11,674 bases of DNA. It comes from Escherichia coli. Its GTDB lineage: Bacteria > Pseudomonadota > Gammaproteobacteria > Enterobacterales > Enterobacteriaceae. The position numbers are program-made. Below, one piece after another: positions 1 to 3,000 of the stretch; within the stretch, counting starts at the first letter, position 1, and the number at the start of each line of letters is the position of its first letter. The stretch is from NCBI RefSeq assembly GCF_003334335.1, contig NZ_QOWQ01000063.1; one strand, given 5' to 3'.

Positions 1-3000
1 ATGTCAGACAAACTCATAACGCTGGCGAAGATCCTCTGTGTAATTGTCGGCATTTCATTTTCACTAATGCTGGTTGCCATTTTCTTTTCCACCGCCTGGC
101 GAGTCCTGACGTTATCGGGACTGGTGGGGTGAAAGAGAGATGAGCCGTGTTCTGTGTGTGGTGATTATTGTCCTGGCGGGTGGCTGTGGTGCGCTGTGGC
201 TGGCAACAGACCATTACCGCGATAACGCCATCACCTACAAAGCGCAGCGCGATAAAAAAGCCAGAGAGCTGGAGCTGGCAAACGCCACCATTACTGATAT
301 GCAGGTGCGCCAGCGCGATGTTGCTGCGCTCGATGCAAAATACTCGAGGGAATTAGCCGATGCGAGAGCTGAAAATGAAACTCTGCGTGCTGATGTTGCT
401 GCTGGTCGTAAGCGCCTGCGGATCAACGCCACCTGCTCCGGTACCGTGCGTGAAGCCACCGGCACCTCCGGCATGGATAATGCAACCGGCCCCCGACTGG
501 CAGACACCGCTGAACGGGATTATTTCACCCTCAGAGAGCGGTTGATGATGATGCAGAAGCAGCTGGAAGGGGCACAGGAATATATCCGCACTCAGTGCCT
601 GAAATAAGTTTTGCTGATGCGCCGTATCGTCGCAGTATTCCCGCATTAACAGAGACCTCAGCCAGACACTGGACCTCCTGCGCGAGTGTGTGGGGATAAT
701 CAAAAACGATGCACACCGGGCTTTCCACGTTTTCAGGTAACGTGAGCGTTTTCCCGCATGGCCGCCTGTCCGGTGCGGTGGTGGAAGAAACCGGATAAAA
801 CAACCATATTGTGTAAATATCAATCAAACAAGACGCTGCTGTGTGAATTCTGAAAAATCACAGCGGTCATTATGCGTCAGTTTTTAACAGAGGACGTCAG
901 AAAGTGACATGGCAAAGCTGGACTGGAAAAAACTGGAGCAGGCATTCCGACGCGAACATGCCGAAACGGGAATAACATTACTGGAGTGGTGCCGTAAGAA
1001 AAAGATTAATTACAACACCGCCAGAACCCGTATAAAAATGGGCAAAATCGATCATGAAATCGATCATAAAACCGATCATGAAATCGATCATGACATCTCA
1101 GATGAAGAACCCAGCAATGACGCGGGTTCCGACGATGAAAAATGCGCAAAAAATTCTGAAAAAAACTGCGCAAATTCGGCAGAAACGAAACGCAACAGCA
1201 GATCGGGCAATCCTCACCCCGTTGCCCGGTTTAGCGACCGTAACACCCACGCCGTGAGACACCGTGGATATGCGAAGTATCTTGAGGCAGATAACCTCAT
1301 GGATGATGCGTCCGATATGGTGCTGTTCGATGAACTGGTGTTCACCCGTGCCCGCGCACTTTCAGTAACAGGAACACTGAAAAAAATGTTCGCCGACCTG
1401 AAAGAGGCGGCTGACGTGGAAACCCGTGTTGCCCTGTACGACAAAATACTCAAAGCAGAACAGGCCCTTGACCGGAATATTGCCCGTATCGAGTCAATTG
1501 AACGCTCATTGCTGACGCTGGACGTTCTGGCGGAAACAGCACCAAAACTTCGTGCTGACCGGGAAAGAATCAACGCTGCCAGAGATAAACTCAGAGCGGA
1601 AACCGATATTCTGACCAGCCAGCGTCGGGGCGTTGTTACGCCTGTCAGTGACATCGTGTCATCGCTGCATGAAATGAGTAATTCGGGGAGACTGGATGAC
1701 ATTCCGGAAGAATGAACCGCGATGTGATGAACCGTCAGAAATGACCGGGACCGAACAACGTCTGTTCATCATGACTAAACTGAGCAATCCCTGGTGGCGG
1801 CTCAATCATCTCTACAAGATACAGAACGAAAAAGGTGAGCTGGTCACCTTCAGAATGCGACCGGCGCAGCGCCAGTTGTTCCGGAGCATGCACAATAAAA
1901 ATATTATCCTGAAAGCACGCCAGCTGGGGTTTTCCACGGCCATTGATATTTATCTTCTCGACCAGGCATTATTCATACCGCATCTCAAATGCGGGATTGT
2001 CGCTCAGGATAAACAGGCTGCCAGTGAAATTTTCCGCACCAAAATTGCTGTACCGTTTGATCATCTTCCTGACTGGCTGAGAGCCTCATTCACCATCGTT
2101 GAACGTCGTAGCGGAGCCAGCGGTGGCTATATCCTGTTTGGTCACGGCTCGAGTATCCAGGTGGCAACCTCATTCCGTTCAGGTACGGTGCAGCGCCTGC
2201 ATATCTCAGAGCACGGCAAAATTTGCGCAAAATATCCGGCTAAGGCGAAAGAACTGCGAACCGGTACACTTAATGCCGTCTCTGATGAGTGCATTATTTT
2301 TGATGAATCCACTGCTGAAGGTGTGGGTGGCGATTTTTACGAGATGAGTAACCGGGCACAGGAAATCACTGCATCAGGGCTGGCGCTGACGCCACAGGAT
2401 TATAAATTCCATTTTTACGCCTGGTGGCAGGATCTCAAATACAGCGCCAGAGTGCCGGAAAGCGGACTTAAGCTGTCACGGGAAAAAACAGCGTATTTTT
2501 CTGCGGTTGAAAAAGCAATGAACATCACGCTTACCGATGAGCAGAAACACTGGTACATCTGCAAGGAAACTGAACAGCGTGAGGAAATGAAGCAGGAATT
2601 TCCCTCAACGCCACAGGAGGCGTTTCTGACGTCAGGACGACGGGTGTTCAGTGCGGAAAGCACGCTGCAGGCAGAGTCATTCTGTTCGCCACCGCTGATT
2701 GTTTATGACATTGAACCGGTTACAGGAACGAAGACCAAAGCGCAGTCTCTGCGTGACGGGAATAAAGCCGAACAGCACCGGACGCTGATGAATTATCTGC
2801 TGGTCTGGGAGCTGCCGGATCCGGATGAAGAGTATGTATGCGGAGCGGATACCGCTGAGGGGCTGGAGCACGGAGACCGCTCATCGCTGGATATCATCAG
2901 ATGCAGTAATGGTGAGCAGGTGGCTCACTGGTTTGGTCATCTCGATGCGGAGCTTTTCGCTCATCTCATTGCGCAGGTCTGCCGTATGTACAACAATGCG

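Follow-up and report, generated by a model that had tools for sequence, protein, structure and literature searches.

The stretch of Escherichia coli DNA analysed here (the window; 11,674 nucleotides (nt) of contig NZ_QOWQ01000063.1, assembly GCF_003334335.1) opens with a short open reading frame (ORF) just upstream of the phage spanin gene Rz, which we call orf43 (window 1-132, plus strand; ATG at 1-3 and TGA at 130-132). Our analysis leaves little doubt that orf43 is a genuine, separate and translated gene, complete in 43 codons, for a small single-pass membrane micro-protein, because its length is conserved, its frame is under purifying selection, it has a Shine-Dalgarno sequence and a start of its own, and its translation has been detected by ribosome profiling (RIBOseq). 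It sits in a variable accessory slot at the junction between the endolysin gene R and Rz of 933W-like lambdoid prophages. We tentatively favour, at somewhat less than an even chance, the view that its product modulates the membrane steps of lysis as an accessory, non-essential factor.

The preliminary description of the window had pointed to a strongly hydrophobic segment of 43 codons that ends 7 nt short of Rz, and it was right in this respect: the product of 43 amino acids (aa) has a grand average of hydropathy (GRAVY) of 1.63, and the Rz start lies at 140. The best 19-residue Kyte-Doolittle window scores 2.87 at residues 11-29, and values of at least 2.5 are reached by only 2 of the 64 ATG-initiated ORFs of at least 40 aa in all six frames of the window. 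An AlphaFold2 model built from a 32-sequence alignment shows one continuous helix over residues 2-38 (mean pLDDT 89.7), and the transmembrane core LAKILCVIVGISFSLMLVAIFFSTA (22-96, plus strand; codons 8-32) is delimited by the hydrophobicity, the modelled helix and the conserved columns. Within this core, C13, G17, S19 and S21 each reach a conservation of 90% or more in alignment A1 (32 sequences), and the small-residue stripe C13/G17/S21 is well conserved in most alleles, the exception being the ant-type (Sakai-like) alleles, in which S21 is replaced by Leu; the stripe is therefore not leaned on for function. With K4 and K10 on the N side and a nearly uncharged C-terminus that has no charged tail (in the commonest allele the C side carries no charge), the positive-inside rule weakly suggests an N-in/C-out topology.

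The coding frame behaves as that of a gene. Among 223 copies drawn from IMG/VR, GenBank phage and E. coli genome loci, 222 have exactly 43 codons; the remaining copy (L054 3001-3198) has lost its stop and reads on to 65 aa, overlapping the Rz start. Over 19 distinct alleles, the orf43 frame has a ratio of non-synonymous to synonymous polymorphism (pN/pS) of 0.35, and its codons 2-26 one of 0.27; the values are 0.98-1.79 for three of the four non-mirror frames, and 0.45 for the codon-mirror antisense frame. Most well-diverged allele pairs have more synonymous than non-synonymous differences (pairwise Fisher p 0.0004 to 0.035), and conservation among the homologues is highest over the N-terminal 26 residues. 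A 66-aa antisense ORF (window 14-214, minus strand) overlaps orf43 and the Rz start and shows no sign of being a gene, antisense pN/pS being about 1 or more except in the codon-mirror frame. The allele of O157:H7 Sakai corresponds to the novel gene XECs191 (genome 1945984-1946130), which was found by RIBOseq and RNAseq (Hucker et al. 2017, PMC5597208, supplements). In LB medium this gene had a transcriptome value of 30.0 and a translatome value of 12.6 reads per kilobase per million mapped reads (RPKM), with a ribosome coverage value (RCV) of 0.43; it was classed as 'real', with a predicted inner-membrane location and a Shine-Dalgarno dG of -7.2 (PMC5597208). The ribosome-profiling signal is low, and Sakai holds several orf43 copies.

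The upstream sequence, which the window itself does not contain, was obtained from identical records: over its first 900 nt the window shows 100% identity to Escherichia phage PhiR12_3 (PV340552.1) and to the chromosomes of several E. coli strains, G1/2 among them. The order in these records is an S21-type class II holin, R, a non-coding stretch, a hairpin, a second small ORF (orf60), orf43 and Rz. R encodes a 177-aa lysozyme with an N-terminus like that of signal-anchor-release (SAR) endolysins (PHROG 7, E 7.5e-62), and its stop lies at position 3647 of locus L001, in which orf43 starts at 4001, so that 353 nt separate the end of R from window position 1. The frame of orf43 does not run into the endolysin, and the suggestion that the hydrophobic segment might be an unusual C-terminal anchor of that enzyme, a reading possible only through the position of the window edge, is refuted by this distance and by the hairpin and orf60 between the two. 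The other way of denying orf43 a separate existence is to take it for a chance ORF in an intergenic spacer; its small size and its absence from the 933W and VT2-Sakai reference annotations would suit such a view, whereas the strong Shine-Dalgarno sequence, the constant length, the pN/pS of 0.35 and the RIBOseq detection speak against it. Even taken together, these two explanations are very improbable.

As to the start codon, a GGGAGG Shine-Dalgarno sequence stands 7 nt before the ATG, and the frame is open upstream as far as a GTG that would give a 73-aa protein, annotated as such in strain ED1a. This longer version was rejected: it overlaps orf60 in another frame, its upstream DNA is wholly replaced in ant-type phages, and in L037-type loci an in-frame TGA four codons before the ATG closes it. 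The ATG at window position 1 is, on the evidence of these loci, the true start, and the earlier proposal of a separate small membrane-protein gene beginning there is upheld by the Shine-Dalgarno sequence and the L037-type in-frame stop. The interval 1-132 is already annotated as a coding sequence (GenBank XSB41867.1; RefSeq WP_001280930.1, 'hypothetical protein'). The borders of mosaic exchange also coincide with those of the gene, with a junction exactly at codon 1 in ant-type phages, where ATGs are kept one and five codons upstream, and another just past the stop in methylase-type phages.

The slot between R and Rz exists in several states: it is empty, or it holds one to four tiny one-helix ORFs of three PHROG groupings, with or without an ant or a methylase gene. 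In a first set of 165 loci gathered by similarity to orf43 (the counts take in loci cut at a contig end), every resolvable architecture reads holin, R, upstream partner, orf43 and Rz. The upstream partner is orf60 in about 105 loci and a 570-nt ant gene (PHROG 524), the 933W/VT2-Sakai type, in about 50, and in four loci a DNA methyltransferase gene stands between orf43 and Rz. In one such arrangement (L017 3140-4075), a 311-aa ORF begins 7 nt past the orf43 stop and ends with a stop that overlaps the Rz start; we read it as an N6/N4-type DNA methyltransferase. In every inspected copy with an S21-holin/933W-type R cassette, orf43 lies between R and Rz. A second set of 79 loci was gathered with R as the query, and 21 of them, with the same R type, have no orf43. 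In one of these (L187) R and Rz are only 3 nt apart, and in others a different tiny hydrophobic ORF directly precedes Rz: a 32-aa MAEKLSTWKF...IRWW peptide (PHROG 6632), or 37-aa or 28-aa peptides ending in AFAIRIVAIAVLVWAIRWW (PHROG 4493, related to orf60). Up to four tiny ORFs are strung together in some loci. Such slot ORFs of 28-37 aa were seen at L201/L211 3233-3331, L183/L186 3255-3368, L195 3385-3471, L234 1830-2276 and L175 2286-2849; each stops no more than a few nt from the Rz start, and IRWW forms the C-terminus of several. A paralogy of orf43 with the 31/32-aa 'WKFLLVW' peptides, suggested by a shared MSDKL/MAEKL start, was rejected (hhalign probability 0.8%). No relationship was shown among the three slot PHROG groupings, and none was detectable by hhalign between orf43 and PHROG 6632.

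These comparisons show that the cassette can do without orf43, for the gene is missing from some phages that have the same R and Rz. They also temper the earlier idea of a non-canonical cassette order, which was overstated: the order S-R-Rz/Rz1 is kept, and what stands of the idea is that the R-Rz junction has been opened into an accessory slot, the common arrangement in 933W/VT2-Sakai-like phages.

The usual upstream partner, orf60, encodes 60 aa (L001 3804-3986, that is, 197-15 nt before window position 1), has a strong Shine-Dalgarno sequence and ends 14 nt before orf43. It belongs to PHROG 1115/4493/3246, and its product has a basic N-terminal part of 30 residues and a C-terminal hydrophobic segment, as in a tail-anchored protein; its pN/pS is 0.16, and a Pfam search with it gave no match whatsoever. 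Directly after the R stop lies a conserved non-coding stretch of about 88-90 nt (L001 3648-3775; equivalents in L003, L090 and others). A terminator-like hairpin follows at about 90-130 nt past the R stop in both orf60-type and ant-type phages, in a different form in each. The stretch and its hairpin could give a 3'-UTR-derived RNA or act as a barrier to non-antiterminated transcription. An Rfam scan of the region from R to the small-terminase-like gene (terS) gave two sub-threshold chance matches only and no antitoxin RNA.

A consensus scan from R to Rz detected no plus-strand sigma-70-like promoter, whether the slot was of the orf60 type or of the ant type. On the minus strand it gave one promoter-like site where chance would give 1.7, so there is no credible antisense promoter. 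The slot ORFs are packed within a few nt of one another, orf43 being followed after 7 nt by Rz or by the inserted methylase gene, and the only hairpin of the slot lies upstream, not downstream, of the small ORFs. Given this tight packing and the lack of a predicted promoter in the slot, orf43 is probably a gene of the late operon, transcribed from the Q-dependent late promoter.

At its 3' end orf43 is intimately joined to Rz. The Shine-Dalgarno-like region of Rz, GGTGGGGTGAAAGAGAG (118-139, plus strand), comprises the last orf43 codons and the 7-nt spacer, and its Shine-Dalgarno-like GGTGGGGTGA falls inside these last codons, an overlap that is compatible with translational coupling into Rz. 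One may then ask whether orf43 is mainly a translational coupler, which keeps Rz translated after insertions have parted it from R and whose peptide has little function. Whatever the variant, only a few nt lie between the last small ORF and the start codon that follows, and in the empty slot R itself abuts Rz. In the window sequence, moreover, pairing is predicted between the Shine-Dalgarno-like region of Rz, its ribosome-binding site (RBS), and orf43 codons further upstream (dG -37.8 kcal/mol, z -2.57). However, this long hairpin is neither conserved nor covarying across variants and was rejected as a conserved RBS-sequestering element; the amino acids are under the strongest purifying selection in the first 26 codons, well away from Rz (pN/pS 0.27), and orf43 persists where the methylase gene precedes Rz and in a phage without Rz nearby. 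A role as coupler in the main is thus improbable.

The reading that we favour, an accessory modulator of lysis, would run as follows. The gene would be expressed only late, alongside the holin or pinholin, the SAR endolysin and the spanins, its peptide would insert in the inner membrane, and there it would modulate a membrane step of lysis through helix-helix contacts, the candidate targets being the triggering time of the pinholin, the SAR endolysin's release and the function of Rz. The one-helix peptide could, conceivably, pack against the second transmembrane domain (TMD2) of the pinholin. Its translation would, in addition, bring ribosomes to the Rz start 7 nt downstream. Its position, though nothing else, makes it plausible that orf43 acts as an antiholin or lysis regulator. 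One degraded prophage, in which IS66 stands upstream and Rz abuts a tail-tip gene, contains a divergent orf43 allele, MSGKLTKLAEILWIIACISFSATLAAFLLSMAWMALSSSGLVG (L168 3749-3880). Non-synonymous changes are in excess in this allele (pN/pS 1.2-1.5 when set against the nearest relatives), which suggests relaxed selection in this single lineage. Since a gene of benefit to the host should stay constrained in a degraded prophage, the apparent relaxation fits a function in the phage cycle better than a benefit to the host, as far as one lineage can tell.

Several observations weigh against this reading. A 44-aa relative of orf43, about 65% identical, occurs in a phiP27-like phage, in which two different holins and a soluble GH108 endolysin lie upstream and no Rz/Rz1 was recognised in the examined stretch; because the relative occurs with different holins, a soluble endolysin and no Rz nearby, the family does not require a partner that is peculiar to pinholin, SAR domain or Rz. 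Nor does the presence of orf43 hinge on the holin being without a charged dual-start extension. The slot also houses classical morons (ant and DNA methylase genes), and bor and rha lie just past Rz. No characterised lysis protein similar to orf43 was found in Pfam, NCBIfam, PADLOC or PHROGs. The promoter scan on which the late expression leans is a crude consensus method, and the low RIBOseq and RNAseq signal that uninduced Sakai cultures give may reflect either expression in lysogens or no more than spontaneous induction.

The main rival makes orf43 an envelope-acting moron that has no part in lysis: the gene, together with orf60, would serve, for example, in superinfection exclusion or in altering host membrane physiology, and would sit where it does only as the place tolerates recombination. 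The variable presence of orf43 among phages that share R and Rz, with junctions at gene boundaries, is that of a moron, and accessory genes (ant, DNA methylase, rha, bor) occupy both the R-Rz slot and the Rz-terS gap in relatives. The family also travels with ANT as a module into a different lysis cassette, beside a small lipoprotein. In the phiP27-like phage, an ANT gene (PHROG 63) and a 31-aa hydrophobic ORF stand upstream of the orf43 relative, a 60-aa lipoprotein-like ORF (PHROG 7528) and then an HNH endonuclease gene follow it, and the block of ANT, 31-aa ORF and orf43 recurs between R and Rz in some Stx1a phages. The lipoprotein-like ORF (L166 4141-4322) has the lipobox LLVGC, and the function of PHROG 7528 is unknown. 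The weak RIBOseq signal in uninduced Sakai (translatome RPKM 12.6) would also suit a gene expressed in the lysogen. On the other hand, the slot contains no promoter-like site, its hairpin is upstream rather than downstream of the small ORFs, the packing with the flanking late genes is tight, PADLOC gave no match, and constraint is relaxed in the degraded prophage, though in a single lineage. Classical lambdoid morons carry their own promoter and terminator. As compared to the morons around Rz (ant, rha, bor and DNA methylase), orf43 shares the recombination-tolerant region, the variable presence and the junctions at start and stop; it differs from the classical ones in that no promoter or downstream terminator is predicted for it; uninduced cultures do, however, give a weak RIBOseq signal. 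We regard the envelope-acting moron as possible, on the unlikely side.

A second holin, or a membrane-permeabilising peptide like the type I toxins, is a further explanation to be weighed, and the preliminary description had named a holin among its candidates. The size and hydrophobicity of orf43 are like those of small membrane toxins, and the gene lies inside a lysis cassette. The cassette, however, already encodes an S21-type class II holin, and orf43 has no charged C-terminal tail, no match to a holin family of PHROG, Pfam or NCBIfam or to a toxin family of NCBIfam, and neither its own promoter nor a credible antisense one; it also reaches up to 11 copies per genome. The holin proposal is not supported, and the whole explanation is quite improbable. 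In particular, membership of the type I toxins was rejected, with no NCBIfam match, no Rfam antitoxin RNA, no plus-strand promoter, and a lone minus-strand site within chance. A role as substitute antiholin, proposed for holins whose extension is MYQ without Lys, was likewise rejected, for holins with the MKSM form identical to that of S21 also occur with the orf60-orf43 pair. Nor does orf43 belong to the spanins: it has only 43 aa with about 10 residues past its transmembrane domain (TMD), where an i-spanin has a long periplasmic coiled-coil, Rz and Rz1 are encoded separately, and its Cys13 is preceded by K-I-L, with Leu at position -1, which departs from the lipobox [LVI][ASTVI][GAS]C of o- and u-spanins.

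Among known systems, we rate orf43 as probably closest in kind to the small accessory membrane genes of phage lysis regions. P2 LysA, P1 LydB and T4 RI are small, non-essential, fast-evolving membrane proteins encoded among holin, endolysin and spanin genes, and P2 lysA is located between the endolysin and the Rz-like genes. Like these, orf43 is small, non-essential and placed in the lysis cassette; it is much smaller, with one helix in 43 aa, and has no sequence similarity to annotated lysis proteins. In phage 21 (S21/S71) the comparison concerns the neighbour: the orf43 cassette has an S21-like holin upstream, in some loci with the identical MKSM dual-start form, whereas the orf43 sequence is unrelated. 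Since orf43 co-occurs with both dual-start (MKSM) holins and holins with uncharged extensions, it does not replace a built-in antiholin. The releasin of phage Mu, gp25 (DUF2730), has a single TMD, and its gene lies a few genes downstream of that for a SAR endolysin, whose release the protein controls (PMC9239132); it has 99 aa, an N-out/C-in topology and an acidic cytoplasmic domain of 73 aa (PMC9239132). Although orf43 is also a single-TMD protein encoded downstream of a SAR endolysin, it has neither a soluble domain nor a DUF2730 match, by which the releasin class was rejected, and its cassette also has a pinholin.

The family is narrow and already catalogued. The product of orf43 matches PHROG 4906, of unknown function (E 2.5e-27; residues 1-43 on profile positions 7-49 of 49), and the identical WP_001280930.1, WP_000539792.1 ('hypothetical protein') and XECs191 belong to the same protein family. 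Homologues were found only in prophages of E. coli and Shigella, with the 43-aa length held down to about 63% identity. A blastn search located orf43 in 1750 of 5426 complete E. coli genomes, with 4658 places in total and a maximum of 11 per genome. A profile search against 1.84 billion representatives gave 29 matches, all of the same narrow E. coli family and no remote relatives. Pfam gave nothing significant for orf43 (sole match DUF3930, E 0.22), and NCBIfam and PADLOC gave no match for orf43 or orf60. The interval is left unannotated in the 933W and VT2-Sakai reference records. A literature search by accessions, peptides and R-Rz position found nothing on the family beyond the Sakai RIBOseq supplement (PMC5597208). 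What was already known is the catalogue entry, as PHROG 4906 or as a 'hypothetical protein', and none of these entries names a function.

Downstream of orf43, Rz (140-607, plus strand) encodes an i-spanin of 155 aa, with a full-length match to PHROG 13 (E 1.5e-75) and with Pfam PF03245 (Phage_lysis) on its homologues. Rz1 (360-545, plus strand) lies inside Rz in another reading frame and encodes an o-spanin lipoprotein of 61 aa (PHROG 3198, E 1.7e-31), in whose translation we take SAC as the probable lipobox. Between Rz and the small-terminase-like gene there is a gap of about 300 nt (window 608-908) without a convincing ORF. This gap is a second accessory slot, filled in related prophages by a Rha-family regulator (L004, L005), by minus-strand bor (933W) or by a GIY-YIG nuclease (L176). 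The terS-like ORF (909-1715) contains 12-nt tandem repeats (AAATCGATCATG, 4.4 copies) at 1045-1097 and 1138-1174, which encode KIDHEIDHKTDHEIDHD in the N-terminal part of the protein. This repeat segment is wholly unlike that of the PhiR12_3 counterpart, the proteins being otherwise near-identical, and because of this complete difference the window does not come from exactly PhiR12_3.

If orf43 were a passenger moron only, it would be an ordinary case, one more conserved hypothetical small ORF. It is absent from the annotations of the model Shiga-toxin phages 933W and VT2-Sakai, yet is carried by about one third of the complete E. coli genomes, and if it tunes lysis, it would be an addition to the catalogue of functional micro-proteins of bacteria and phages. 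A broader and more doubtful reading is that the R-Rz junction, that of Shiga-toxin phages included, is a dedicated slot for interchangeable single-helix proteins of 28-60 aa from three or more PHROG groupings (4906, 1115/4493/3246 and 6632), which would form an unrecognised class of trans-acting regulators of lysis timing. Were this true, these micro-proteins would act on pinholin, SAR-endolysin and spanin systems and so influence when phage and Shiga toxin are released. Toxin release from Stx phages needs phage lysis, and if orf43 tunes its timing, the gene may serve as a simple handle on that release.

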